DNA of 64,000 nucleotides, taken from IMG/VR virus record IMGVR_UViG_3300030433_002667, positions 470-64,469 of that record; one strand, written 5' to 3'. Position numbers and translations under genes: made by a program. Each line of letters begins with the position of its first letter. Positions within the stretch are counted from its first letter, which is position 1. Source of the DNA: a virus. Below are positions 4,402 through 60,000 of this stretch, piece after piece. The notes under the pieces are model-generated. The model did no database searches, was not told where the DNA came from, and saw only the letters and a list, made by a program, of their open reading frames with translations.

Positions 4402-5083
4402 GATAGAGATTAAGCAGATACTTGAGCGACTAAGAATGAACGGAATGTGGGAACCGGGAGGTCTAGGTCTCACGTATGTGAGGACTGGAGAGAAGAGCCT
4501 ACAGTTGATACAACAGCATAACAACCCGACGGCTGCGCAGGCCCGCATTAGGATGCGCCTGTTGCTCCAGAGTGTTGATTGGGAGATTGATGAGAGCGAA
4601 GTCAATCTCATTGATGTGCAACAATTGAGTCCTCAGGAACAACACATGCAGGAGATGATGATGCGACAGCAGGCGGCCCAGCAATGGCCATGCCCCAGTT
4701 GCGAAACTCCTTTGGCAGCATTCCCATTGGAAGATGGTAAATGGACCTTTGATGGTCAGGAAGAGATGCTGCTCCCTAATGGTGAAATAGAGAAGGTTGA
4801 ACAGTGGTCAGTTGTTATCGACTGCCCAGTGTGTGACACATCCGTTCCTATGGAACCATACGATTACGGCCTGCTTGCAGGAGATGATGTGATGTTGTCT
4901 TACAAATCAGACAAGGTTATCTTCACTGCACTGTCTCGCCCTGAAATCATTGGGATTATAGACGAGAAGAAGAGTGATGAGATTATTGTGACAGGGACAT
5001 TCTGTCCGTTTTATGGAACACTATTGCCACCACACGTGCGTGGAGCGGTAGTTCGATTTGAAGCGATAGGTGAGGAAGAGTGA
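4379..5083 (+). CDS. Zinc-ribbon-containing hypothetical protein
   Basis: CPSC...CPVC pair; GGAGAGGG RBS; 234 aa. Confidence 0.7.
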   Translation: MEEQTTPEIEIKQILERLRMNGMWEPGGLGLTYVRTGEKSLQLIQQHNNPTAAQARIRMRLLLQSVDWEIDESEVNLIDVQQLSPQEQHMQEMMMRQQAAQQWPCPSCETPLAAFPLEDGKWTFDGQEEMLLPNGEIEKVEQWSVVIDCPVCDTSVPMEPYDYGLLAGDDVMLSYKSDKVIFTALSRPEIIGIIDEKKSDEIIVTGTFCPFYGTLLPPHVRGAVVRFEAIGEEE

Positions 5084-5349
5084 GGGGATTCAACCAGACC
5101 ATCAAGTGGCGTGTCCCTGCTACCTCTTCCAAGTGGAAGGGTAAGGCAGAGGTCGTCATGAGTGTCGCTGACCCGATTGGTGAGAGACCTGCCCTAATCG
5201 ATATCCGAGTTAGACGCACATCAGAGCATCCGAATGGTGAGGGTTTCACGAGAGAGGGCGTGAGACTGAGTCAAGAAGATGCCAGTTCTTTGGTTAAAGC
5301 AATTGAACATGCCCTCACGGAACTGAGGGAAACAGATGTTACTGGCTGA
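5080..5349 (+). CDS. PC4/YdbC-like ssDNA-binding protein
   Basis: IDIRVR...G.GFTREGVRLS...L..A matches the PC4 pattern DIR...G..P.KKG(I/V).L; size 89 aa. Confidence 0.6.
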   Translation: MRGFNQTIKWRVPATSSKWKGKAEVVMSVADPIGERPALIDIRVRRTSEHPNGEGFTREGVRLSQEDASSLVKAIEHALTELRETDVTG

Positions 5350-6796
5350 GGCAGCAGACATCGCTGAAAATCTCAGGCGATTGCATAGGAAATACCTCGT
5401 GGATAGGGAGAATCGTTCTGCCTATTTCCGTGAAATACTTGACACTGTTAGGCAAGCGACACAGAATGCACAGGATGATTTGGAGGAATTGGTTGAGATT
5501 TTGTATCCACGCTACTCCAAGTACCAGCGACAGTTCAGTAGCATCAGAGAGATTCGTGATGACGCCTGTAAGAAACTGAGTATCTCCCCTCTCGTATGGG
5601 ACGAGGCATTGGCAGGCAAACCGATGGTTCCTCTGCTGGCTCTTGAGTCCCCTGAGTATGGGGGCGAGGGGATGACTGTCAAGGATGCGCTCAATCTCAT
5701 GGGCAGGATTCCAGACATAGGCTTCCTTGAAATTGCCAGCAAAATGAATGAGAAAGAAGCACTGTTGTTCTGGTCAAGGGCATTGGACGAGCGACCCATG
5801 ATGCCTATCGATAGATTCCTACAGGTTATTTCTTACCTGACTGACGGCAACGCTCAGAGCCTAACTGCTATCAGACGAATGCTTGAGACTATGCACCCCT
5901 CTGAAGTGATGGCCAAGTTGTTCGGTGAACAGATGGTGAACACGACTGTATCTACCCCTGTACAACCCGGTCAAGCGTTCAAGGGCCCAATCTATAGAGC
6001 GTGGAATAAGATGACCACACCGGGTGAAGTATACGCAGAGGTCATCAGTAAGCCTCGTCGTTATCTGCACATCACTGAGTTCCCGAAAGGGACATTCAAG
6101 GGCGTGCTATACAATAGAGATAGACAGGTGGTAGGTAAAGTAAGTAGTCTGCCATACACAGGTAGCGAGGCTATCTTTGAAGTAGAGGCAGACGCCAGTA
6201 AGTTACACTTTGTTACAGATATATTGGCACTCGGTGATGATTGGGATATTCACAAACTACCCTACGCTGACAGGGTAGCATATCTCAACCGTTTGGATTT
6301 CACTATCCCTGTCAAGACAGGAAAGTTCCTAGAGGCCTCCGTAGATTACAGCCATTTGCTTGAGACTCTGGAAGCACAAGAGAGACTCCGACTTACATCA
6401 CCGGGGCCCATGGTCGTTGGAGGCGATGGTGGCTGGTTGATTCTGAAAGACGCATTCCATATCCACCTGCTCGTGAGCGCCATCAAGAAAGACGATGAGT
6501 TCAATACTCACGTGCGCCTTGCTGCTATGGATGGGTACGAGATGTATGAGGTGGGCGAACTACAGGTTCCGCTCGGCCCCGCTCAACACATGCGACAGCG
6601 ACTTGCGCAACAGGGTCTGCTTGCAGGCCAGAACTGGTTACCTGCAGATGAGTACGGGCTTGTGGTTATGCTGGAGATAGGTGAGTTCAGCCTGAGCGAC
6701 CTATCTGTAAAGAGAGCCACGTTAGAGTACGTAGATGACAACATGGGATACAGTGATGTTTCTCAACTAACTGACCTCATCGAAATGGGGCACTGA
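5336..6796 (+). CDS. ATP-dependent DNA ligase-fold protein with degenerate catalytic motifs
   Basis: DBD-like N-terminus, then ligase-type motifs in order: I YAEVISKPRRYLH (ExKxDGxR expected), III IFEVE, IIIa HFVTDILAL followed by LPYADRVAYL, V WLILK, then an OB-like C-terminus. The adenylated Lys is replaced by Ile. Confidence 0.6.
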   Translation: MLLAEAADIAENLRRLHRKYLVDRENRSAYFREILDTVRQATQNAQDDLEELVEILYPRYSKYQRQFSSIREIRDDACKKLSISPLVWDEALAGKPMVPLLALESPEYGGEGMTVKDALNLMGRIPDIGFLEIASKMNEKEALLFWSRALDERPMMPIDRFLQVISYLTDGNAQSLTAIRRMLETMHPSEVMAKLFGEQMVNTTVSTPVQPGQAFKGPIYRAWNKMTTPGEVYAEVISKPRRYLHITEFPKGTFKGVLYNRDRQVVGKVSSLPYTGSEAIFEVEADASKLHFVTDILALGDDWDIHKLPYADRVAYLNRLDFTIPVKTGKFLEASVDYSHLLETLEAQERLRLTSPGPMVVGGDGGWLILKDAFHIHLLVSAIKKDDEFNTHVRLAAMDGYEMYEVGELQVPLGPAQHMRQRLAQQGLLAGQNWLPADEYGLVVMLEIGEFSLSDLSVKRATLEYVDDNMGYSDVSQLTDLIEMGH

Positions 6797-6800
6797 AGAC

Positions 6801-6824
6801 TTTTGGTTATAAATAACAAAGAGA
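6801..6824 (+). promoter_or_regulatory. TATA-containing 24-bp promoter motif, copy 2
   Basis: TTTTGGTTATAAATAACAAAGAGA between the ligase-like gene and RFC; near-identical to 2444-2467. Confidence 0.7.
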
Positions 6825-6835
6825 GAGGAGTTAAC

Positions 6836-7777
6836 ATGATTTACCGAGAAAAGTACCGACCCAACACTCTCACCGAACTGGTGGGATGTGATGAGTTCGT
6901 CGGTCATGCTCAGGGATGGACGCTGGATGAGTGTCCTCCTAATTTACTCTTCGTAGGCCCACCGGGTACAGGGAAGACCAGTGCAGCCAATGCACTTGCC
7001 CGTGATTTGATGGGTGAGTTCTTTGACCCTATCAACTACATCAAGTCCAATGCGAGCGATGATAGAGGCATCGACGCTGTAAGAGAACTCAAGCGAACCA
7101 GCAAGCAGAAGGGGATAGGTGTATCCCGACGTGTATTCGTATTGGATGAGGCTGACCAGTTCACATCTGCGGCGCAGAAGGCCCTACGTCAAGTCATGGA
7201 AGACAGTCATGGCACTGCAATCTTCATCCTGACAGCCAATGACATTGGCCCTATACACAGCGCAATCAGAGACAGGTGCATGACTTACACATTCAAGCCG
7301 CTGTCTAACACCGAGGCATACTCTCGGCTACATCACATTCTACAGGAAGAGGGGCTACCTAAACAATGGGCAGAGCACTTTGATGCACTGAACCAACTGT
7401 CCAGTGGTAGCCTAAGGAAATCGATAGATACGCTTGAGGCATTACCGAATACGGATGATGCTTTACTGGAGCACCTTAAGCGTGACACTGCGGCCCTAAA
7501 CAGGGCTGCACTAAACCTGATGGGTAGCGACTTCCCACAGGTGACTGCCCTGCTTACCATGGCATTGGAGTCAGGAAACAGTCGCCTTGGAGTTCTCAAG
7601 GGACTCCGTTATCGTGCCAAACCACTCATGGAGAGTGAAGATGATTGGCACAAATTCATGCTCACATACGGCGAGTTCGTCATGTTAGCCACGCAGTGGC
7701 CAGACGATGACTTGGCGTTTGTGGAATACTTTGTAGCAAAGTTGAAGAAAAATATGGAGGCAAAACCAAATGAGTGA
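6836..7777 (+). CDS. rfcS: Replication factor C small subunit (clamp loader)
   Basis: EKYRP, Walker A GPPGTGKT, NASDDRGID, Walker B LDEAD...AQKALR, SRC-like IRDRC. ATG 6836 follows GAGGAG; the track's upstream start at 6803 runs through the promoter motif. Confidence 0.9.
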   Translation: MIYREKYRPNTLTELVGCDEFVGHAQGWTLDECPPNLLFVGPPGTGKTSAANALARDLMGEFFDPINYIKSNASDDRGIDAVRELKRTSKQKGIGVSRRVFVLDEADQFTSAAQKALRQVMEDSHGTAIFILTANDIGPIHSAIRDRCMTYTFKPLSNTEAYSRLHHILQEEGLPKQWAEHFDALNQLSSGSLRKSIDTLEALPNTDDALLEHLKRDTAALNRAALNLMGSDFPQVTALLTMALESGNSRLGVLKGLRYRAKPLMESEDDWHKFMLTYGEFVMLATQWPDDDLAFVEYFVAKLKKNMEAKPNE

Positions 7778-9053
7778 AAATGAAGAAAATAGAAAATGGC
7801 CATCGGATGTGCTTGAGCGCCTACGAGGCTATGCAGAACGTACCGGTGTGCAAGTAGGAGAAGCGGCTAACGAGTTCAAGGCTTGGCTGAAGAACGAGTA
7901 TAGCGTAGATGACCCTCTTGCGGAGGATGAGTTCTACCTAAGTCAATGGTCAGAACAATTCGTGATTGAAACCCGTAATCTAGGGGGCAGTCGTTCCTCT
8001 GGACGTGAGACAACAGCGTATGTTGGTATGCTGCTCGGTATCGAAGATACCACGAGAGACCAGCGAGCAAACGCCAAGGAGGCGGCGCTGAATCTCTACA
8101 AGAGCAACCGAGACCGTGCGATTGACGAAGGTCATATCGGGATTGTCACAGCCAAGGAAGGCATGTGGTATGTCAACGGTAAGGTCACGAACGAACGTGT
8201 GGATGGTAGCAACCTTCCTTGGTTCGGATTTGAGCATGGGGATTCGATTCTCTGCTTACTTAACACCCGCAACGAGGGCAAGCCGATGGCTCCGACATCC
8301 GTCTCTCGTACTGCATACTTCCTCGGTTCAGAGGAAGGTAGCAACGATATCAAGCAGTGGCGCATTAACTTGAGCAACAAGTCCATGGATGCGGATTACC
8401 AATTCCATAAGGCTTGTCGCATCCAAGTCATCCCACCGAGCCAAGAGGGACGTGATACTCTCTACACCAACCGTGATTTCCACGAGACCATTGAGTACAC
8501 TGACAATTTCGTACCGGAGCATCTGCGAGCAGAACTGCGCCCGGAGCGATTCCTCGTCAATGACCAAATGCACAGCGAAGTTGTAGACCTCAGCGAATTA
8601 GCAGAGGTTCACACTGACCGCAAGGTGCAACTACCCAGCGGAGTCACGCTCAACCCGACAGTCATTGTCAAGGGATTCGTGAGCCTACTCAACAAGGAAC
8701 CAATGAACAGTGAATACGATGCGACAGGTCGCTCATACCGTATGAGCGTCACCAGTCTGGCACTACAGTCTCGCAATGGTCGAGACAGCATGCATTCATC
8801 CGTGACTGTTTGGATTCCGGGTCGTCTACATGATGAACACCATCCGTTTGAGTTCACTGATGATAACGGCAATCTCGTACCATATGCTGAGCGCACTCAG
8901 GTCATCCTGTTTGGTCGCTTGAAGATGCGACCTTACAACAATGAGATGCTACCGAGCATCGGACTGCTGGGAATCCATGTACCTTCTCGCACTGCCCGAC
9001 CGGGCGGTGGAGCAGGTACTCCTACCCTCAATCAATTCGGAGGTGACCAGTGA
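7770..9053 (+). CDS. Putative OB-fold ssDNA-binding / RPA-like protein
   Basis: Helical N-terminus, beta-rich body and Gly-rich tail, located between RFC and the recombination ATPase. Called mainly from context. Confidence 0.35.
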   Translation: MSENEENRKWPSDVLERLRGYAERTGVQVGEAANEFKAWLKNEYSVDDPLAEDEFYLSQWSEQFVIETRNLGGSRSSGRETTAYVGMLLGIEDTTRDQRANAKEAALNLYKSNRDRAIDEGHIGIVTAKEGMWYVNGKVTNERVDGSNLPWFGFEHGDSILCLLNTRNEGKPMAPTSVSRTAYFLGSEEGSNDIKQWRINLSNKSMDADYQFHKACRIQVIPPSQEGRDTLYTNRDFHETIEYTDNFVPEHLRAELRPERFLVNDQMHSEVVDLSELAEVHTDRKVQLPSGVTLNPTVIVKGFVSLLNKEPMNSEYDATGRSYRMSVTSLALQSRNGRDSMHSSVTVWIPGRLHDEHHPFEFTDDNGNLVPYAERTQVILFGRLKMRPYNNEMLPSIGLLGIHVPSRTARPGGGAGTPTLNQFGGDQ

Positions 9054-10069
9054 TGTCCGGTTGGGGAGCATTGTCTCAGCAGAACGAACAGCAAATCGAA
9101 ACTGCGGCTGAAGCGGAAGCGGATGCAATTGCTATCGATAAGGCGGCGGAAATGAAGACTGTGTCATCAGCGGAGTTCATTACTCGCTTCCCCGGCATCG
9201 CTGCAGAAATGGAATCTCAGGCAGTCGCCCCAGATATCCAGCCGAGTCACATCTTCTGTGGCATGGTCGGACACGAAGGCACTGGTAAGACAGGTTTGGT
9301 AATGGATGCACACATGCATCGCTACACCGATGGTGAAATGCTGTGGTCGATGGACTTCGACAATGGTGCAATGGCCTGTAAGCAGGCGCACTATCCGAAT
9401 GACCCACGTGTACGAGTATTCTCACCATGGGTCATGCAGGTAGAAGACCGCACTGCATACAACTACATCAGTACGTATCAGCGTATCATGGATATCGGTA
9501 AGTACGCTGTAGAGTATGCTGAGAATCAGAACAAGGAAGGCTTCACTGGGCCTCTGCTCAAGACATTCCTTGTGACTGCAGTTGACCAATTCGATAGTGT
9601 GTGTATCAACAACATGAAAATCTACGATTTGGAAATGGATGCCAAGGATGCTATCGAAGCGGCTGCGGCGAAGTTGAACCAAGAGATTGGTTGGAATTGG
9701 AACATCAGGTCTACCCGATTCAAGCAACTTACCCATATCTGCCAGCGCCTTAACTCGCTGGGCGTAGATGTCTATTGGGAGACCCACCTCAAGGAAGTCT
9801 CTGATACCAAGCGTGTCAGTTTTGACGGCTGGAAGTTTGCGTGGGAGAAGAATGCTACCAACGACCTGTTCCAAATCCTTTGGTGCAAGTCGAAGGTGAT
9901 GCGTAACAGCGATGGCTCACCTACAGGAGAGACTCGCTATTACGTGGACTTCTTCAAGCAGAAGACCAACTCTGACCTCAAGGGTCAGGAGAGAACATAC
10001 TTCGTGACTAAGAAGGGTGAGCCTGCTGTATGGCACGGTCTACCTGAGATGAGAGAGGGCATGCTTTGA
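9050..10069 (+). CDS. P-loop ATPase, AAA_24/Sak4-like recombination protein
   Basis: Walker A GHEGTGKT, then hydrophobic strand-DFDNG and a Walker-B-like VTAVDQFD; follows the SSB-like gene. Confidence 0.65.
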   Translation: MMSGWGALSQQNEQQIETAAEAEADAIAIDKAAEMKTVSSAEFITRFPGIAAEMESQAVAPDIQPSHIFCGMVGHEGTGKTGLVMDAHMHRYTDGEMLWSMDFDNGAMACKQAHYPNDPRVRVFSPWVMQVEDRTAYNYISTYQRIMDIGKYAVEYAENQNKEGFTGPLLKTFLVTAVDQFDSVCINNMKIYDLEMDAKDAIEAAAAKLNQEIGWNWNIRSTRFKQLTHICQRLNSLGVDVYWETHLKEVSDTKRVSFDGWKFAWEKNATNDLFQILWCKSKVMRNSDGSPTGETRYYVDFFKQKTNSDLKGQERTYFVTKKGEPAVWHGLPEMREGML

Positions 10070-10194: not shown

Positions 10195-10956
10195 ATGGCT
10201 GAGTTCACAATAGGACATGACAACCTCAAGAACTTCTTGAGTAGTCTTGGTAAAGATTTGTCAGACATTGTTATCACACTTAGTGAAGATGGCATCACTG
10301 CTTCTGTCGGTAAAGACACTCACTACATCCGTCGTCAGATGGATTGCGGTGTCACGCAGACTGGTCGAATAGTCATCAGTGACCTCCCTAAGTTCAAATC
10401 GTTCTTGACCGCTATCAAAGGTGGGGACATAACTGTGACTCAATCAGGTAGGACTGGAACGCTTCATGTGGCTTGCGGTAAAGCAAGTCTGCAACTACCT
10501 ACTTCATCATATGTCCAATCTCAAGACAAGGTAGGACTGATGGAGCGACTCATTAAGCAGAGCGAAGATAACATGTGGCAGACTTGGCATCAGATGTCCC
10601 TTGACTACCATGCTAAGGTAGACAGTGAAGCACTGAAGCCTGCTGCGAAGTTCGGTAAGGTGCTGGGCGAGAAATACTCGTGCAAAACTGAGTTTGACCC
10701 GCAGGGACGTGAGTTCGTGATTCGTGGTGGAAAGGCATCGACGGGCAAGATGTTCGTCAAGGCTTCTCTAAATGACATCGATTCCCCTGAGATTCCAGCA
10801 AGGTCAGCATTCGACCGATGGCTACCGGAACTATTGAACAACTTGCCTAGTGGAGAGATGAACCTCTACACGGGAGATGAGACTGTCCTTGTTCTGGAGC
10901 AACCTGCTACCAAGTTCCTAATGGTGGTCATCGACCAAGAGTACGAGGAGGATTGA
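10195..10956 (+). CDS. pcn: PCNA-like DNA sliding clamp
   Basis: 253 aa; N-terminus F.I...LK.FL..L....SDIVITLSEDGI resembles PCNA; near RFC and PolB. Confidence 0.7.
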   Translation: MAEFTIGHDNLKNFLSSLGKDLSDIVITLSEDGITASVGKDTHYIRRQMDCGVTQTGRIVISDLPKFKSFLTAIKGGDITVTQSGRTGTLHVACGKASLQLPTSSYVQSQDKVGLMERLIKQSEDNMWQTWHQMSLDYHAKVDSEALKPAAKFGKVLGEKYSCKTEFDPQGREFVIRGGKASTGKMFVKASLNDIDSPEIPARSAFDRWLPELLNNLPSGEMNLYTGDETVLVLEQPATKFLMVVIDQEYEED

Positions 10957-11149: not shown

Positions 11150-11563
11150 ATGCGCTTACTTAACTTATGTCCGCACGATGTTGACCTCGTAGTTGGGGGC
11201 GAACCTGTGAAAATTCCGAGGAGCGAATACACTGCCAGAGTGAAGCAGACAGTCAACGTCAATACTTTCATCGATTATGAGGGACATCGTATACCTGTTA
11301 GTTCTCATGAAGCACACGGGGTATACGTTGCTCACGAGTCAGGTAAGAAGCAGGACTGGTCGGACTTTGTCAATGAACATCCAGATACTGCTTTCATCGT
11401 TAGCATGATTGCGAGAGTATACATTGCGGAAGACATTGAGAATGTGTATACAATCTTAGGTAAGAAGAAAGGTTTGGTGCACGCAAATTTCTTAGCCACG
11501 AACAAAAACGAGCAAGGTCTCTTGGACACTCTAAAGAAAGGTGGGAAGGTGACATTAGGATGA
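11150..11563 (+). CDS. N-x-[TC]-P-H family small viral protein (possible Crn4-like ring nuclease)
   Basis: ATG 11150 after GGAGGAG. LLNLCPHDVDL...IPRSEYTARV...PDTAFIVS...NEQG matches the widespread phage NLTPH family. The Crn4 link is from memory and unverified. Confidence 0.45.
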   Translation: MRLLNLCPHDVDLVVGGEPVKIPRSEYTARVKQTVNVNTFIDYEGHRIPVSSHEAHGVYVAHESGKKQDWSDFVNEHPDTAFIVSMIARVYIAEDIENVYTILGKKKGLVHANFLATNKNEQGLLDTLKKGGKVTLG

Positions 11564-13923
11564 TTATCGATACATTCCGACCTGACCCCGAGGGCCCTGA
11601 CCACATCTACAAGAGGTGGCGTGACGCTGATGGCAACCTCATCGAAGAGGTCATCGAAGATTTCAAGCCATACTTTTGGATTCATGCAAGTACACCTACT
11701 CGCATCGTAAATCGCATCCTTGACCGCTACCCCGGCTCTTCTATAGATTGGTATGACAGAGCAGAAGCGCTGAGAACAGGAGATGAGTTGGTCAAGGTGT
11801 ATGCCTATAGAACGGGCGACGTAAGGGATATGGCTCGTGAGTTCGGTAGGACTTGGGAAGCAGACCTTAGCCTCACTGACAGATACCTCATCGATTCTAT
11901 AGATGAGATGCCTGAGTGGAAGCCACGTGTCTGGCACTTCGATTTAGAATGGGACCCGAAGACAGATGAGACCACGGTTATGGCTGTCATCGATTCCTAT
12001 AATAATCGTAAAATTTCCTTCTGTTGGGAGAAAGATAATCCCAGAGGATTGTACGACATGGACCATTCTATAGATGAGAGAGAGGTAGAGTACGAAGTCA
12101 AGGGCGTCCCTGTTAAGTTCACCTACGAGCGTCACATGTATGGCTCAGAAGCAGATATGCACGAAGCCTTTCTCCACTACTTAGATGAGTGCAACCCGGA
12201 TGTTTTCATTGCACACGCAATCATGTGGGCAGACCTTCCTCATCTTGTCAGGCGTTTGCCTGAGTTTAGGAGACTGAGCCCTCTCAACCGTGTACTAAGA
12301 CCACCTAGCAAGAGTGGTGCTCGTGGGTACGATTATGTCGCTCAACCTATCATGGGTAGACTTTGCTTTGATACAGCGGCCCCGCTGAGAAGCGGCTCTG
12401 GATTTGAGCGGGTATGGAAAGACAGTGGTCAGCCTCAACTCAAGAATCTCAAATTAGATACCATCGCAGAGACCCTTGGGTATGGTGGTAAGTTTGACAT
12501 GGATGTGTTCACTGGCTGGACAGAGCGCTTCGACGAATATGTCGATTACTGTATGCAAGATACTCTGCTACTCAAGCGCATCGATGAAGAGAATCACGTG
12601 CTGAACTTCTTCCTCAGCCTGCAAAGAATCACAGGCGTTTCCTTCCCATCCTGTCACAATGTGACAAGATTCGCACGAGGTCTACTCAGCCGTAGAACTC
12701 ACTGGAAAGCACCTACACGTTCTACTCAAGAGAAGCAAGATTACGAGGGTGCATTCATCCCACCACCTACTCCCGGACGATACGAAGGTGTAGCGTGTGT
12801 GGATTACAAGGGATTGTATCCGTCACTCATATTGTCGCATAATCTCTCATGGGAGACACGTGTTTCTTCCAGCCGAAAGAATGAGGAGAATGTCAGGGAA
12901 TTGCCCGACGGAACCTGTTGGCTACAAGGGGAGCCCGGTCTACTTCCTACAATCGTCACTGAGATGTTTGAACTCAGAGACAAATACAAACAGAACATGA
13001 AATCCGCCTCTTCGGAAACTGAGAGAAACGGATGGAATACTTTGCAATTAGCAGTGAAGCGTGTCATGGCTTCGTTCTACGGAATGACTGCCAGTGCACA
13101 CTGGGGTTGGTCCGATTTCGGTATCGCCAGTGCTATCACCGCCTGTGGAAGACAGGCTATCAAATTCCTAATGGAGGAATCTGAAGCACAGGGCTATAGT
13201 GCCCTGTATGGACATACAGATTCCGCATTCGTACAAGTGCCGTTTGAAGAGGCAACTGCATTAGCCAAGCATTTGACTGAGACTGTTCAGCGTGAGCACG
13301 AGGCGAGCCATCTCATCGTAGAGTTTGAGGCATACATGCCCTACTGGCTGGTCGCTGGTAAGAATCTCTACTACGGCATCTGCTCCTATCCTCCAGAAGA
13401 TGAGGGCAAGGTCAAGTCTGCTCGGTTTGGTAAAATCAGCACACTGGCTCCTATTTCTAAGAACTTGGAAAACGATGTTCTGAAGGCTGTATGCACGGGC
13501 GCTGATGAAGATGAAGTGACACAGATGGTCAGACCATTGGCTAAGCGAATCAAGCGAGGTGATGTGACGCTGAAGGAAATCAGCGGAACAACTCGTATTC
13601 AGAAGAAACTCAATGCCTACGCTGATAGTGTAGGTGTGCCCGGAGTCAAGGGCGCTCGCTACTACAACGAGCATCTCTCCAACGGCACAAAGTTCGATGA
13701 AGGAGACAGTGTAAACTGGGCCTACATCGACGGTGTCCCTGAGGGTCTACCTATGACTGACATCATTGCTTACAATGATGAGAAGGAATTAGAAGGATTC
13801 TCGTTGGATTATGACAAGATGGTTGAGAAGTTGGTTAAGGCCAAAGTCAAGAGTATTTACAATGCACTTGGTTGGAACTTAGAGTTCGCTACAGGTGCAG
13901 CAAGACCGAAGAGGTATTGGTGA
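11560..13923 (+). CDS. polB: Family B DNA polymerase
   Basis: ExoI FDLEWD, ExoIII YCMQD, motif A DYKGLYPS, motif B KRVMASFYG, motif C YGHTDS; 787 aa, no intein. Confidence 0.95.
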   Translation: MIIDTFRPDPEGPDHIYKRWRDADGNLIEEVIEDFKPYFWIHASTPTRIVNRILDRYPGSSIDWYDRAEALRTGDELVKVYAYRTGDVRDMAREFGRTWEADLSLTDRYLIDSIDEMPEWKPRVWHFDLEWDPKTDETTVMAVIDSYNNRKISFCWEKDNPRGLYDMDHSIDEREVEYEVKGVPVKFTYERHMYGSEADMHEAFLHYLDECNPDVFIAHAIMWADLPHLVRRLPEFRRLSPLNRVLRPPSKSGARGYDYVAQPIMGRLCFDTAAPLRSGSGFERVWKDSGQPQLKNLKLDTIAETLGYGGKFDMDVFTGWTERFDEYVDYCMQDTLLLKRIDEENHVLNFFLSLQRITGVSFPSCHNVTRFARGLLSRRTHWKAPTRSTQEKQDYEGAFIPPPTPGRYEGVACVDYKGLYPSLILSHNLSWETRVSSSRKNEENVRELPDGTCWLQGEPGLLPTIVTEMFELRDKYKQNMKSASSETERNGWNTLQLAVKRVMASFYGMTASAHWGWSDFGIASAITACGRQAIKFLMEESEAQGYSALYGHTDSAFVQVPFEEATALAKHLTETVQREHEASHLIVEFEAYMPYWLVAGKNLYYGICSYPPEDEGKVKSARFGKISTLAPISKNLENDVLKAVCTGADEDEVTQMVRPLAKRIKRGDVTLKEISGTTRIQKKLNAYADSVGVPGVKGARYYNEHLSNGTKFDEGDSVNWAYIDGVPEGLPMTDIIAYNDEKELEGFSLDYDKMVEKLVKAKVKSIYNALGWNLEFATGAARPKRYW

Positions 13924-15111: not shown

Positions 15112-15365
15112 ATAAGAACATGATTAGAAGAATAATAGAGACCCTGATGGAGCGTATTGTTGGGCGACCCGTGTCGCTAACATTCTCTCATTTGGGACAA
15201 GACCAAGACTATACAGTGGCTATACAAACTAGTCTCTATGAGTTTGATGAACAACAAGATGGTCCCATGGGCCCGATGTATTTGGCTATCAATATGAAGC
15301 ATCTACATGATGCTGATAGCATGTCATCTATTGTGAGGGAAATTGCTGAGAAATATGGAGCGTGA
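15108..15365 (+). CDS. Hypothetical protein (85 aa)
   Basis: ATGA/GTGA overlaps with both neighbours. Confidence 0.65.
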   Translation: MNKNMIRRIIETLMERIVGRPVSLTFSHLGQDQDYTVAIQTSLYEFDEQQDGPMGPMYLAINMKHLHDADSMSSIVREIAEKYGA

Positions 15366-16474
15366 AGGGCATGAAGATTGTGTTTGATTTTCCTAGGGAG
15401 GTGATGGAACTCTCTACGGAACAGGGGAAAGGCTTCAGGCGTTTAGTCAGAAGCAACCAAGAGTTGGAAAACTATTGGGCTGGGAAGAATGGTGTATCTA
15501 ATGCCTTCATGACAGTGTATGGTTACCGTGCCACCCAGCAGCCCTACAACAAAAGAGTAGACCTGATGACTCCTATCATCAGGCACTTCGTCCTTGACTT
15601 TGACCCGAAGAATTTCAGGCAACGTAATCGCCCAGAGGTCGATATTCAAGAAGCACTAAGTCAGACACTAAGGCTCCACTACCATCTACAAGAGAAGGAC
15701 ATATCTCATGCCATGTGGTATTCAGGCGGAGGGTTTCACGTGTGGGTCATGTTAGACAAGCCATATACACCCGGAAGCGGGCCACATCTGTCTGCAATCA
15801 AGGAAGCAGGTACTCAAGTCATCAATGACTGGGTCAAGGATTTAGATTTGTTTTGCTCAGACCCTGCTGTCCCATTCGATACCAGCGGAATGATTCGCAT
15901 TCCGAACTCATACAACGCCAAGCGTGGATTCTGGTCTGTTCCCCTGACATCTACTGACTTAGAGAGGGGTATGGAGCACATCATGGACAAGGCTTCTGAA
16001 TCAAAGCAGGGTATGGTATCTTATGGCTCAAAGGGTGTCACCTTGAATGTCAAGAAGCCCAGCGAAAGAAGTCAGATATTCAATGCAAAGACCGCACCTG
16101 TAGACTTACCCACCGTCAATATGGATGGCATCATCATATTGCCCTGCCTTAATGCAGCGGCATGCCAAATGGGTAGCAATCCCAGCCACGATGCACGAGT
16201 GCAGTTGGTCAAGTATCTATCAAAACGCCTGAGAAATTTCATTGATGTAGAGAGAATTCCAAAGGAAACTACTGACAAACATACCGAAACAATTGTAGAC
16301 TACATTCGTTCGCTGCAATGGGCAGATTTTGACGAAGGTGTGACTCGCTATCAAGTGGGCACTATCGTTAGGACTGAATATCCCCAGACATGCTCTATGC
16401 TCTGGAAGAAGGGTATGTGTCTCGGTAAGTGCCGATACTGGGATAAGACAGGAGCAATCGAGGAGGAAGAGTAA
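15362..16474 (+). CDS. priS: Archaeo-eukaryotic primase with fused PriL-like Cys domain
   Basis: AEP motifs FVLDFD, SGGGFHVW, DTSGMIRIPNSYN; C-terminal LPCL...PSHDAR...PQTC...CLGKC resembles the PriL Fe-S domain. Start may be ATG 15371. Confidence 0.8.
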   Translation: MKGMKIVFDFPREVMELSTEQGKGFRRLVRSNQELENYWAGKNGVSNAFMTVYGYRATQQPYNKRVDLMTPIIRHFVLDFDPKNFRQRNRPEVDIQEALSQTLRLHYHLQEKDISHAMWYSGGGFHVWVMLDKPYTPGSGPHLSAIKEAGTQVINDWVKDLDLFCSDPAVPFDTSGMIRIPNSYNAKRGFWSVPLTSTDLERGMEHIMDKASESKQGMVSYGSKGVTLNVKKPSERSQIFNAKTAPVDLPTVNMDGIIILPCLNAAACQMGSNPSHDARVQLVKYLSKRLRNFIDVERIPKETTDKHTETIVDYIRSLQWADFDEGVTRYQVGTIVRTEYPQTCSMLWKKGMCLGKCRYWDKTGAIEEEE

Positions 16475-16777: not shown

Positions 16778-17508
16778 TGTCGACACCACCACTAATCATT
16801 GATACCAACGAGAGAGGGCCCCTCCATGATGCTATCATTAGGGCGGCTGAAAGACAAGGCTTCCCCATCAGAAAAGAACACCTACAAGGCATGGGTGATT
16901 ACAAGGCAGGTAATGCACACATTGAGTGCAAGAGCCTCTCAGATTTATTCCAGTCCAGTCACAGTGGACACCTCATGCGTCAGTTGGAAAACTTAGATGC
17001 TAACTGTGAAAGAGTGTTCTTAGTGGTGCATGGAGACATAGCGAAATATGTTTCCATGAGTAAGAGGCAAGGGCGCAACATTTCCTATTCCAAAGTAATG
17101 AACGAACTGTTAGGTACCTTTGCTAGAATTATGGCAGACTTTGATTGCCACATCTATAGAGCGAAGGACTGCAGCGAAGCCGCTATGTTCATTGCTAAAT
17201 TACACAGTAAACTCCACAAGCCTGCGAGCCGACATGGCGCAAGGGCAGTCACACGTGTCAGCACTAATGATGTCAGAGCCGACATGCTGATAGCCGTACC
17301 CGGTTTTGGACCGGATTTGGTCGAGCGGACCTTGGAAAAGTGCGGCTCCATTGAAGAAATGCTATTTCCAGAATCGCTCAAGCAAGTGAAAGGTATGGGT
17401 ACCACCTTGAGGAAAAGACTGCTTGAAGTCCTAACCTCAGAAGAACCTGTCAGAGTCCAAAAGACACACAAGAGAGGGAATAGAAATGATGGAACATCGA
17501 GCAGATAA
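16774..17508 (+). CDS. ERCC4 (XPF/Hef/Mus81-type) structure-specific nuclease with HhH motifs
   Basis: LIIDTNE, GDY, IECKSLSDLFQS and tandem HhH (VPGFG...VKGMG); ATG 16774 after GGAGG. Confidence 0.85.
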   Translation: MMSTPPLIIDTNERGPLHDAIIRAAERQGFPIRKEHLQGMGDYKAGNAHIECKSLSDLFQSSHSGHLMRQLENLDANCERVFLVVHGDIAKYVSMSKRQGRNISYSKVMNELLGTFARIMADFDCHIYRAKDCSEAAMFIAKLHSKLHKPASRHGARAVTRVSTNDVRADMLIAVPGFGPDLVERTLEKCGSIEEMLFPESLKQVKGMGTTLRKRLLEVLTSEEPVRVQKTHKRGNRNDGTSSR

Positions 17509-18901
17509 TTACGAATGCGTACACAAGTATCCTATCCTAAAGGGATACTTAGAGCACTACAATCAGGTTAGTAGGAACAATGAGATTCCGGGCCTGTTGT
17601 CGTTCTTCTTCGTACAGGGTCAGGCAGCCATACCATATGTGCGCATCCCTGTAGGGGCAAGTAATCTTGACCCACGTGTAAGCGTGTTCTGGATTCAGGA
17701 TACAAGAACAGGTAAGTCAGCAGCATATCAGGTGATTGAACGTGTTTTAGAAGAATCAGGTTTGAACAGTGTCGATTACAATTCAGGTAATGATGCTGCA
17801 TTGGTGGGTACACTTGTCCCTGACCCCGATGACCCTCAGAATGCAACCATTGTCAGAGAAGGTATACTTGCTGGCCGTAAAGGTCTGAACTTTGATGAAG
17901 GGAGCGTACTGCTAAAGACTGGTCAACACAATGAGAACACCACCCTATTCCTACAGAGTGCACTGAACTCTGCAGGAACTGGTAGAAACATGCTGGTTAA
18001 GCACATGGCTCGTGAGACATTTGAAATCAAATCTGAGGTGTCCCTATGGATTACCACTTACCCACCTAAGGGTATCAAAGAGCACGTTCTTGACAAGGGT
18101 ATCTTCCAGCGTGTCTTGACTTATTGGCGCAACTGGACTCTTGAGATGAAGCGTGAGATTGCGCACGAGTTGGCAGGAGCCGTTCACAATAAGCCCGACT
18201 ATACAGTTTCTTTCGACAAGGTTGTCGAGTATTTCGTTGACCTACAGAAGAACCTCAAGAATAGAGTCCTTCACTTAACGGGCCTATCGAATATGGAATG
18301 GGAAGATATGGCCAGAGATGACCAAGAGACAGTTGTGATGGGCATCATGAACTCCCTCTTCAATATCGACCAATCCTATATCCCAGCACTGATATCCGCA
18401 ATTGACGAATACTACCATCTCATTGAGAACATGGACCCTGAGAAGCAAGGTGTCTGTGCATCGTTCATCATGGGATTACAGAATTATACCAATGTCCTCG
18501 CTCATCACATGGCGATGATTGAAGGGACTTGGACAGTTCGTGGAGACCACGTAGACATGGCTAAGGAAATCCTCTATGACTTGTATCAGAATCTGATTCA
18601 CTGGCTTGAGTCCGAGGTCAAGGTTGGTCAACAAGGTAGTGAGAAGAAGGCTATGCAAGGCCTATGGAAGAGTGCCTATGACCGCTGTGAACGCTATGAC
18701 TTTGATGACAGGCGTGGTATCGGATGGGGTAAGAAGAGCGACATCATGAAGGCATTCGGTGAACTTGCTAACCTGAATAGCAAGAGTTCAATCAATTCCA
18801 AATACAACGATTTCGGAGCAAGGATGTTTGAAGAAACTCGTGAAGGAGTCCGTATATACATTCGACTGAGACCCGACCACCAAAGCAAAGGAGGGAAGTG
18901 A
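17486..18901 (+). CDS. Divergent AAA+ ATPase, probably MCM-like replicative helicase
   Basis: Walker-A-like QDTRTGKS, Walker B LNFDEG, Arg-finger-like GIFQR, C-terminal wHTH-like region; located next to the primase. Confidence 0.5.
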   Translation: MMEHRADNYECVHKYPILKGYLEHYNQVSRNNEIPGLLSFFFVQGQAAIPYVRIPVGASNLDPRVSVFWIQDTRTGKSAAYQVIERVLEESGLNSVDYNSGNDAALVGTLVPDPDDPQNATIVREGILAGRKGLNFDEGSVLLKTGQHNENTTLFLQSALNSAGTGRNMLVKHMARETFEIKSEVSLWITTYPPKGIKEHVLDKGIFQRVLTYWRNWTLEMKREIAHELAGAVHNKPDYTVSFDKVVEYFVDLQKNLKNRVLHLTGLSNMEWEDMARDDQETVVMGIMNSLFNIDQSYIPALISAIDEYYHLIENMDPEKQGVCASFIMGLQNYTNVLAHHMAMIEGTWTVRGDHVDMAKEILYDLYQNLIHWLESEVKVGQQGSEKKAMQGLWKSAYDRCERYDFDDRRGIGWGKKSDIMKAFGELANLNSKSSINSKYNDFGARMFEETREGVRIYIRLRPDHQSKGGK

Positions 18902-57067: not shown

Positions 57068-60000
57068 TCAAGTATGGATGACAGCCGAGTCTTCTGTGAT
57101 TTCAAGTTCACCCTCTTCGATGGGGATAACCATGTGCTTAGGTGGCTTTGCGTCCTCCGTTCCCGGCTCTATAGTTGAGTCCTCTCCGGGGCGCTTTCGG
57201 TTGTCAAAGTCAGGCATTGTCTTTTCATCGTGGAGATTGGTCGGACCCATGGGAGATTCGTTCGGAGTAGCATAGTCTATACCCAGACCCTTGGCTCCTG
57301 AACTGGATACACCAACAAGTCCAACCCCACTCTTAACCATTCTATCAAGAAGTTCCAAGCCTTTCACTAGAACTTTCCTTTTCTCATTCTTGTCCCACCA
57401 ATCAGTATCTTTGACTCTCTTAGGCTCAATCAAAGGTTCAGCATCGCCTTCTGATTCGTGAACTTCTTCCTTTTCAGCAACATCCAATCCAGCCTTGAGC
57501 ATAGCACCGGCCACTGGTGACCAGTATTGTCTCTGACTCTCAGACAAACGGATGAGATAATGAGAAGAGGCCAGCGGACTATGCACAGTCCAGTTTTGAC
57601 CACGTTGTGTACATTTGTATACAACATCGCCTTGAGGCATCGTGATTCGGATTCCACTCGGTGCTCTATAGACTTCACAAAGCCACTGCTCATCTTCAGA
57701 TTTAGCGAGGATTCCTAAAGTCTCTTGGCTGACCAATCCCTCACCTTCAGCCTCACCTTCTATATCCGAACCGCTGACATTGTAGAGTTTCTGCCCACTG
57801 CTGGTTTCTGATTCGCCAACATTCGTAACATTCACACGCACATGGTCTCCTTCGTTGTATTTCTCAGGACTATCAAATGCAGCACCCATGTCCATGTAAG
57901 TATGTCCTTTCATTTCTACAGCACGAGAGCCAAGTTCTTCTTCCTGAGTAATTGGACCTGTACCTAACCGGTATGTGTAGGGCCCGTTGCCTCTGCGTTC
58001 CAAAACAATCAGAACAACATCACTGCCCGGACTGAGCAGAACCCACTTCGGATGCCTCATTTCACCGACCATGTAAGTAGACTTAGCATCACGTAGTAGT
58101 AGTCGATTGTCCTCTTCCTGTAAATCTTCTATAGTCAGTTCAAGGCCTGCATCATCAGTAAGCCTCGTATCACTGGCACTAGGAACATGGATATTTTCAA
58201 TTCCTTCCATGCCACCTCTCAGAACTTTCATCCTCTCGCTAAGTGGAACGTCATGCACTTCCTTTTCAGAAAACTCAATGACATCGAAAATATAGTATCC
58301 ATCTTCAGTCTTGATAACATCTACATGGAAGTCTTCATCAGAAACCTTCTGGAAATTCTCTTTGTCTTCCTTATTGAGTTTGAATGAAGGGGAAGTTACG
58401 TCCTCACCTTCCTTCTTGACAAAGCCTCGCTCACCTTCAGGTAGGACTGAAACTATCCAATCGCCTGTAAATCCACGAAGGTGCTCAAGGTCATCCAGTT
58501 CAAAGATGCGATGCATCGGTTGCAATAGAGGGATGTCTTTGCCCAATTCCTTCCTAATAATGTCAGGATTGGTCAATGCGGCTAAGTTCATTTCAGATTT
58601 AGCGACACTGGTATTTTCTCTATTCCTCGGATAGGGTTCACCTTCAGTAACTTGGAACTGAGGGCCTTGTCGAGCAAGAGAAAAGAGTCTTTGTGCTTCT
58701 TGTCCATGGAGAATACTCTTCAGTTCTTCAGGGGCAACCGCATCATAAAATCCTTGTAAAGGTTGAACGAGATTCATGTCAAACCCTTCAGGCATGTGGA
58801 AAATCGAAATCGTTCCATCTGGTTCAATGTTATAATCAAAGGTAGGATTTACTTCGACTTGGTCACCTAACTCATGATTGAATCCATCAGAATTGTAAAG
58901 ACTGTGTACAGAATAAGAATTTGGACCAAAGCGGTCCACTGGAACTTTACCTAAGCCTAAATATTCGGCTTCTACTTCACCTACAGTATGTGGCTCAATG
59001 GCCGGGTCACTCATCAAAATAGAATTGAGATTCTGTAAAGTTCGATGAGCATGTGATTGTTTCTGAGCCCTCTTCCCTTGTTTCTTACCAGCCCTTGAAG
59101 GAGTGATGGAGATTTCTTCTTGCCTTGGGTCAGCATTATGAGCAGTATGCCAATGCAGTCCCAAATCTTGCATTTGTTCTCCTACACCCACTTTGCCAGT
59201 TCTACCTCGACCACCAAGCCTTGGGTCATATGCTGATAACTCTGTATTGGCAGCACGTGCTGCATTAAGGAGAGATTCATTTCTATCTGGCTTATTGGTC
59301 GCTAAATCCAAAGCCTGCTGACGAAGGTCTCCTGAAAACTCACCATAGTGCTCTCCTTCAGAAAATGCCTGTGCTAAAGTCATGATTGGGAACTTAACAG
59401 AGGCATCCTGTCTTTCGATTGCCATTTGCTTTACTCTGTCTAACAAAGCATCAATTGTCATCTGAACATGGGGCTCTGAATAATCAAGTCCCAGCATATC
59501 TGCAACATCTTCCGCAGAATCTTGAATACCGATAGAATTGGGTGATTGGTGGACAAGTTGTTTCATCTGACTTGCTCTATCTCCACTGGCCATTTCTCTA
59601 ACTTGACTATGTCTTCCTACACCTTTTGTATGTATACCATGAGTTTCGTGCGGTGCAATATTCAGGAAATCGTTGGCCATGCGAGCCAGTTGCCGAATAT
59701 TAGCATCAATTACTTCTGGGGGAAGACTAGGGTCAAATTGACCGGGGAACTGTGATTCAACTACATTTTTCATCATAGGTCCGGCTTGAGTAATGGCAGC
59801 AGCATCCGCTGCCAATTTATCATTTACAGTATCATCTTGTATGTTTCTATGTATAATCTGGGAACCTGCTCCTGCACGACGAGTTAAGTCATCATGTTCA
59901 AGTTCAGCCAACTGGTCTTCAAGTTCCTTGGCCCAGTGCAAGAGATGTTCTGCATGCTTTTCATTTTCTGGAGATTCGGCCAAACCTTCAAACTGCATTT

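Follow-up and report, generated by a model that had tools for sequence, protein, structure and literature searches.

The question raised by this locus is whether a gene that has kept the body of a DNA ligase still encodes a ligase. The gene lies in a window of 64,000 nucleotides (positions 470 to 64,469 of IMG/VR virus record IMGVR_UViG_3300030433_002667, which is 69.6 kb long and estimated to be 65% complete), and all coordinates given here are those of the window. The window is from a magrovirus and has genes for a DNA polymerase of family B (PolB), an RFC-like ATPase, a PD-(D/E)XK nuclease, ERCC4, an SNF2 helicase, and a thermosome subunit; the last two, both present here, are the hallmarks of group A magroviruses in the text of Philosof et al. 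(2017, PMC5434244). An earlier sequence-only reading had described the gene as a full-length DNA pseudoligase, and an open reading frame (ORF) was found at exactly the coordinates that it gave:

5336..6796 (+), pseudoligase ORF, 486 aa plus stop

The ATG has GAGGG on its 5' side, and the start site was confirmed by the N-terminal sequence MLLAEAA, which is conserved in all close homologs. At the level of the aligned sequences, we show that the motif I lysine, the adenine-stacking phenylalanine, the lysines of motifs IV and V, and the RxDK of motif VI have been lost family-wide.

A Pfam scan of the pseudoligase, even at E<=10, returned no family, and therefore none of PF01068, PF04675, and PF04679. 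An NCBIfam scan found no ligase family for the protein or its family, and no match was obtained in PHROGs or by tblastn in a phage GenBank collection. Searches of the PDB sequences with the single protein (phmmer) and with the family profile gave no ligase and nothing significant. When ten distant relatives were scanned, one showed a faint hint of PF01068 (E 0.1) and the others none. The close homologs, 59 in number, came from marine metagenomes at 40-98% identity and were nearly all ~485 aa long; when 1.8 billion cluster representatives were searched exhaustively with HMMER, ~20 full-length relatives at 19-32% identity were added. Ligase kinship could be seen in the sequences only by profile-profile comparison with hhalign (E 4e-5 to 7e-5).

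The arrangement of domains, to which the sequence libraries gave no clue, was evident in the predicted structure. An AlphaFold2 (AF2) model built from a 36-sequence alignment had a mean predicted local distance difference test score (pLDDT) of 86.2 and consisted of a helical N-terminal domain, a short linker of low confidence, and a pair of beta-rich domains, which we assigned as a DNA-binding domain (DBD), a nucleotidyltransferase (NTase) domain, and an OB domain as follows:

5336..5929 (+), DBD-like alpha-helical domain, aa 1-198, all-helical in the model and aligned to ligase DBDs by hhalign and VIA
5951..6493 (+), NTase-like domain, aa 206-386, with a VIA match to the LigIIIa NTase
6494..6793 (+), OB-fold-like domain, aa 387-486, strongly acidic, with a VIA match of NTase+OB to LigD

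In a Foldseek search against the PDB, the top 49 matches were all ATP-dependent DNA ligases (best E 2.2e-15, probability 1.00), including human LigIV, Lig1, and LigIII and the Thermococcus, Pyrococcus, Archaeoglobus, and Sulfolobus enzymes, and the ligase alignments covered all three domains. VIA-align gave a Z score of 16.3 for residues 1-486, 15.6 for the NTase domain alone against LigIIIa (root-mean-square deviation 2.6 A over 160 residues), and 16.0 for NTase+OB against LigD. The neighbours in the ESM Atlas were all ligase clusters (scores 0.88-0.90), which we regard as leads only. The DBD-NTase-OB layout of a full-length ligase homolog, recognized in the sequence-only reading, is thus confirmed by the AF2 model, Foldseek, and VIA at the level of a confident predicted structure.

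Several local features of ligases were also recognizable by hhalign. The conserved EAxLFWxRA of the DBD-like domain aligns to the EAkYivR helix of ligases, and the C-terminal tail helix aligns to the ligase PEDATT...EMY tail. Two segments considered as PCNA-interacting (PIP) motifs were ruled out: in the C-terminal SQLTDLIE, Asp takes the place of the hydrophobic residue at position 4, and the segment falls on the C-terminal helix that ligases themselves have, and EAxLFW aligns to the conserved ligase DBD helix. The NTase and OB domains are smaller than those of genuine ligases, by ~50 aa and ~38 aa, respectively. For the OB domain, the net charge is -11, the pI 4.3, and the Lys+Arg content 6.3%, versus +1, 8.0, and 15.9% in genuine ligases. 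Because the domain is acidic and short of Lys and Arg, the ligase-style DNA encirclement that had been proposed for the protein is doubtful.

As the reference for mapping catalytic residues, we used 21 genuine ATP-dependent ligases from Thermoplasmatota genomes, all having KYDGxR. The hhalign alignment of this reference with the family profile was collinear over 446 columns (E 6.8e-5, probability 63%), and a second one with a different ligase subset (E 4.2e-5, 70%) gave an identical motif I register. Columns were counted over 47 viral genes, namely that of the window and those of 46 other loci. The ligase motifs and their remnants are as follows:

5636..5650 (+), LAxES motif, aa 101-105, in the slot of the archaeal-ligase KKQxSLF / QKSFF PCNA-binding loop (hhalign register); L101, E104, and S105 each 47/47
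6038..6070 (+), motif I remnant E235-V-I-S-K-P-R-R-Y-L-H245 (hhalign register); motif I Glu at E235 (E 34, D 13 of 47), nucleophile Lys at V236 (V 47/47) or at a one-residue gap, Asp-Gly at S238-K239 and variable (Asp position S/K/R/T, Gly position G/H/N/Y/A/K/S), motif I Arg at R241 (47/47), the His after motif I at H245 (47/47)
6179..6187 (+), motif III remnant E282-V-E284, Glu retained; motif III Glu at E284 (47/47), E282 also 47/47
6215..6220 (+), motif IIIa T294-D295 for Phe-Asp; Thr, Asn, or Ser in place of the adenine-stacking Phe (T 38, N 5, S 4), D295 47/47
6380..6397 (+), motif IV remnant E349-R-L-R-L-T354 for EGxxxK; Glu kept (E 42/47), Lys lost (T/V/S/I/K/L at this position, K in 4/47)
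6434..6448 (+), motif V remnant W367-L-I-L-K371 for WxKxK (hhalign register); V/I at I369, and K 26, D 11, Q 10 at K371
6734..6745 (+), motif VI position D467-D468-N469-M470 replacing R-x-D-K (hhalign register); D467-D468-[N/T/D]-[L/M] in the family, D467 47/47
6746..6787 (+), C-terminal helix G471-x-S-D474-x-S-Q477-L-T-D480-L-I-E-M, the best-conserved block of the superfamily

The motif I string EVISKPRR reported from the sequence alone was found as E235-V-I-S-K239-P-R241-R242. The K-to-I change read from it held with respect to the loss of the lysine but not to the register, since I237 is one residue off and hhalign gives V236 or a gap. Whichever register is taken, the nucleophile position is hydrophobic in all family members. 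The model fits the motif I register, with strands 232-237 and 241-248 and a three-residue loop, and its secondary structure indicates a hairpin loop one residue shorter than that of ligases. For motif IV, where erosion of the Glu/Lys pattern had been claimed, the lysine is indeed lost (T354), whereas the glutamate is mostly kept; the replacement of the motif VI RxDK was verified within the YVDDN string to which attention had been drawn. The nearby lysine of VISK, which had been named as a possible adenylation site, is excluded at the sequence level, K239 being present in 3/47 genes: column 239 reads G14 H12 N9 Y4 A4 K3 S1, position 238 is Lys in 13/47, and K238 or K239 occurs in 16/47.

In the T. 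gammatolerans ligase, adenosine monophosphate (AMP) is contacted by E258, K260, R265, R280, E310, F350, E409, and K414 (PMC13136779). The corresponding positions in the pseudoligase are E235, V236 or the gap, R241, R261 (41/47), E284, T294 for Phe, E349, and T354 for Lys; that is, the acidic residues and the arginines survive, and all lysines and the stacking Phe are lost. R350 and R352 are new invariant arginines at motif IV. With the adenylylation nucleophile and most nucleotide-contacting residues absent, the protein is predicted to be non-catalytic, in agreement with the sequence-only reading.

In the 47 viral genes, just two lysines are invariant, K116 (DBD) and K268, neither of which is kept in the wider family, and the 36-sequence alignment, which extends down to 19% identity, has no Lys column of >=60%. 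Nine columns are invariant in this wide alignment (W146, R313, R352, G366, D399, G400, G471, D474, and Q477), with G471, D474, and Q477 unchanged even in relatives of 19-30% identity. Since all 47 viral genes and the 19-30% identical relatives share the catalytic loss as a fixed pattern, it goes beyond chance. Three viral ligases of the same collection, unrelated and very divergent, served as a positive control: KxDGxR is retained in each, and the genuine-ligase hidden Markov model (HMM) detects these three but not the pseudoligase family. The search of viral contigs with the genuine-ligase profile, which was aimed at group B magroviruses having a true ligase in the slot of the pseudoligase, found only three unrelated viruses, which have small true ligases.

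The comparison of homologs suggested along with the sequence-only reading gave the result anticipated there, a loss fixed family-wide in a gene under strong purifying selection (dN/dS ~0.05). The ratio of nonsynonymous to synonymous substitutions (dN/dS), calculated by the Nei-Gojobori method for 86 pairs with 0.05 < dS < 1.5, had a median of 0.047 (range 0.012-0.102); by domain, it was 0.035 for the DBD, 0.046 for the NTase domain, and 0.038 for the OB domain. All of the extracted and aligned viral genes (47/47) were intact full-length ORFs. These results show that the pseudoligase is not a decaying gene and that strong purifying selection acts on each of its three domains.

The surroundings of the gene are equally constant. 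At 54/54 informative loci, the pseudoligase is followed in order by the RFC-like ATPase, two ORFs, an ORF of ~250 aa, PolB, the PD-(D/E)XK nuclease, and a primase-like ORF, and the same order was observed in a branch with a member only 23% identical to the pseudoligase. From this invariance of gene order down to 23% identity, the pseudoligase is regarded as an ancient core component of the replication module. The genes of the module in the window include the following:

6803..7777 (+), RFC-like clamp-loader AAA+ ATPase (AAA 1.4e-15; DNA_pol3_delta2 1.4e-13), separated from the pseudoligase by a 6-nt gap
7770-9053 and 9050-10069, grouped with 6803..7777 as RFC-like proteins
10195..10956 (+), probable sliding clamp, 253 aa, with the ESM Atlas neighbour cluster gp45-slide_C (score 0.94) as a lead only
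11560..13923 (+), family B DNA polymerase (DNA_pol_B 7e-34)

The sliding clamp is probably encoded by the ~250-aa ORF of the replication block; according to Philosof et al. (2017, PMC5434244), a clamp is encoded by all magroviruses.

Other ligases were sought by six-frame searches of the window genome and five relatives that are 91-100% complete. Neither an NAD-dependent ligase (PF01653) nor an RNA ligase (PF09414) was found in the window genome and the near-complete relatives, and no other ligase-like gene was present in the replicative block of the five relatives. With PF01068, the sole other signal was a borderline one (22-26 bits, motifs III-V only) inside a structural-module ORF of 1800-1944 aa, which in the window is as follows:

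57068-62563 (-), structural-module ORF, 1831 aa, with a ligase-like NTase-OB module at ~57521-58705, found also at loci L057-L061

Across genomes, this second module scored 18-26 bits with PF01068. KxDG occurs nowhere in it, and six genomes read V-S-x-[LMYF]-P-[EK]-G-[EP]-R at the place of motif I. In the profile alignment with genuine ligases, which covered only motifs IIIa-V, the Glu and Lys positions of motif IV are occupied by Arg and Asp and the motif V lysines by Leu and Ser. The AF2 model of the module was poor (pLDDT 50), and its match to ligase NTase-OB at E 6.5e-9 is indicative only. Philosof et al. (PMC5434244) report that group A has two ligases, of which the replicative block and the structural block contain one each. 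The second module is probably their structural-module ligase, and both reported ligases probably correspond to the degenerate modules described here. These viruses thus seem to have no intact ligase of any type; they probably carry no working ligase and must use that of the host.

The viral thermosome gene pointed to metagenome-assembled genomes (MAGs) of Poseidoniales (marine group II, MGII) as the host order. A bacterial-type, NAD-dependent LigA was found in 150/151 Poseidoniales genomes, and an ATP-dependent DNA ligase in 0/151, so that LigA appears to be the sole ligase available in the infected cell. The pseudoligase family was also found in 0/151 of these genomes, with the same search detecting it in 5/5 viral genomes as a positive control; the gene is therefore virus-restricted and not a copy of a host gene. 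Across the phylum, an ATP-dependent ligase was present in 44/61 genomes, in contrast to its absence in Poseidoniales. The nearest match to the viral thermosome in the cellular database (82% identity) was the 9.6-kb contig L062 (NZQM01000180.1), from a MAG labelled Parvibaculum sp., a bacterium; this contig is most likely a misbinned magrovirus contig.

The balance of these findings tips somewhat toward the view that the pseudoligase was derived from a three-domain ATP-dependent ligase, kept the fold, lost the chemistry, and now serves as a non-catalytic adaptor of the viral replisome, with host LigA sealing the nicks. The helical domain and the NTase remnant (R241, R261, E284, E349, R350, and R352) would recognize a nick, a 5'-phosphate, or a primer-template junction, and the acidic OB domain and the invariant GxSDxxQLTDLIE tail would dock a protein partner, for which the clamp loader, the clamp, the polymerase, and host LigA are candidates. 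Nicks between Okazaki fragments made by the viral replisome would then be sealed by the host NAD-dependent ligase. A more specific form of this idea, that the dead ligase body is a nick recognition and hand-off subunit that recruits host LigA to the viral PolB/clamp/RFC replisome for Okazaki maturation, is put forward only tentatively.

Several points weigh against the adaptor. The role and the partners are proposed from synteny and conservation, and functional statements past 'non-catalytic' are inferred. The action with the clamp suggested in the sequence-only reading would likewise have its basis in the invariant synteny with the clamp-loader, clamp, and PolB genes. The hhalign probabilities are moderate (63-70%), and the lining of the AMP pocket was deduced from alignment. 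An acidic OB domain argues against ligase-like clamping of DNA. QKSFF is a PCNA contact in the P. furiosus ligase (PMC13136779), and the segment aligned to it reads LAxES, without Q..FF, although another way of binding the clamp is conceivable. K268 is invariant in the 47 close viral genes, so that a relocated nucleophile is conceivable in that clade. Finally, the window genome is 65% complete, and the absence of another ligase is taken from its near-complete relatives.

The adaptor role is made plausible by two precedents. A stand-alone ligase DBD in jumbo phages of subgroup 2.1, viruses without a known ligase, has been proposed to recruit the host ligase (Iyer et al. 2021, PMC7824862). It is likewise a non-catalytic ligase piece, and we liken it to the pseudoligase by description; however, it is the helical DBD only and belongs to viruses of bacterial hosts, whereas the pseudoligase is the whole three-domain body in viruses of archaeal hosts. 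Catalytically dead Lig4 (engineered K273 mutants) supports non-homologous end joining (NHEJ) structurally, with Lig3 performing the sealing (PMC9638927, PMC10858965, PMC11754673). There too a ligase body has a structural role and another ligase seals; the Lig4 proteins are laboratory point mutants, whereas the pseudoligase was inactivated in nature and long ago, at many of its motifs, and the loss has become fixed in a lineage of viruses.

An alternative to the adaptor is that the protein is purely a scaffold or an accessory subunit of the clamp loader or the polymerase holoenzyme, in which the ligase fold is architectural and makes no contact with nicks. The position of the gene directly 5' of the RFC-like ATPase in every genome, with probable co-transcription, agrees with this, as do the acidic, Lys/Arg-poor OB domain and the fact that conservation is highest in a C-terminal helix of the kind typical of docking elements. 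Nevertheless, the conserved pocket remnants R241, R261, E284, and E349 with the new R350 and R352 exceed the needs of a bare scaffold, the ligase signature helix is retained in the DBD-like domain, and we consider this explanation rather unlikely.

Less likely still is an inhibitor or shield, as suggested in the sequence-only reading, which would bind nicks or ends to protect viral DNA against host nucleases or repair, or would act as a dominant-negative ligase mimic against host replication or repair. Dead enzymes that retain substrate binding often inhibit or shield, and binding to DNA may persist in the DBD and NTase remnants. However, the gene belongs to the core replication operon rather than to the early or anti-host genes and has held this place ever since these viruses diverged deeply, and with so acidic an OB domain a nick is unlikely to be tightly encircled. 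The decoy of the host ligase proposed in the sequence-only reading is also unlikely because the host order uses LigA (150/151) and has nothing ATP-dependent to mimic (0/151); of the explanations considered, it fits the host data least well.

Very improbable is a still-active ligase or nucleotidyltransferase with a relocated nucleophile (K268 or the loop Lys 238/239) or an unusual cofactor: published papers list an ATP-dependent DNA ligase for magroviruses, catalytic residues have sometimes migrated in pseudoenzymes (PMC10211241), K268 is found in 47/47 of the close viral set, and these viruses are without another ligase, but no NTase lysine is conserved in the wider family, K238 or K239 is present in only 16/47, the stacking Phe, the motif IV and V lysines, and the whole of motif VI are replaced besides the nucleophile, and even the very divergent genuine viral ligases of the same collection all keep KxDGxR.

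The closest known proteins are the archaeal and eukaryotic three-domain ligases (Lig1, LigIV, and the P. furiosus and Thermococcus enzymes; PF04675-PF01068-PF04679). The pseudoligase shares with them the domain order and the fold, the motif I Arg, the Glu of motifs III and IV, the ERR-helix Arg, the motif V GW, and the C-terminal helix. Unlike them, it has no Pfam-level similarity and lacks the lysines of motifs I, IV, and V, the IIIa Phe, and the VI RxDK; its NTase and OB domains are shorter, an acidic OB domain stands in place of a basic one, and QKSFF is changed to an invariant LAxES.

Magroviruses are among the most abundant archaeal viruses of the surface ocean and have been described as having a nearly complete replisome, with an ATP-dependent ligase among its components, and little need of host factors (PMC5434244, PMC10768690). 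The group A replicative-block ligase of Philosof et al. (2017, PMC5434244) is by inference probably of the same gene family as the pseudoligase. The text of that paper counts the gene as a ligase in a nearly complete replisome and does not mention catalytic loss, the word 'inactivated' having 0 occurrences in it. The ligase kinship of a replicative-block gene of group A has probably been known since 2017. What seems to be new is a natural, ancient, and strongly selected pseudoligase in a lineage seemingly without an intact ligase; our literature search turned up no account of a full-length pseudoligase that is natural, ancient, and strongly conserved.

If both ligase-like modules are dead, the host NAD-dependent ligase would be needed for the last step of lagging-strand synthesis, which would be a concrete host dependency of these viruses. 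If nicks are in fact handed off to LigA, the pseudoligase would be the first natural ligase fossil to have become an adaptor dedicated to a ligase from a different family. The protein also offers a clean system for studying the non-catalytic roles of the ligase body. For annotation, 'DNA ligase' calls based on fold or HHpred need a check of the motif I lysine.

Farther downstream, two ORFs, at 15362-16474 (+) and 17486-18901 (+), gave weak NCBIfam hints of the primase subunits PriL and PriS (E 0.005-0.02) and of an RFC large subunit (E 0.006). These hints would fit the primase of the replication module and another clamp-loader-like protein in it.

On its 5' side, the pseudoligase is overlapped by a small gene:

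5080..5349 (+), small conserved ORF, 89 aa, pI 8.4, with a 14-nt overlap at the pseudoligase start

This small basic ORF gave no family match. It lies upstream of the pseudoligase at 50/54 loci, being adjacent in about half, and a 124-aa ORF occupies its slot in the distant branch L108. It may be a partner protein of the pseudoligase. On the 3' side, in several lineages, 0.7-1.4 kb of extra DNA is present between the pseudoligase and the RFC-like gene at loci L033-L043, L047, L049, and L051-L054, where the distance from the pseudoligase to the RFC-like ATPase is 2130-2910 nt versus ~1500 nt elsewhere.

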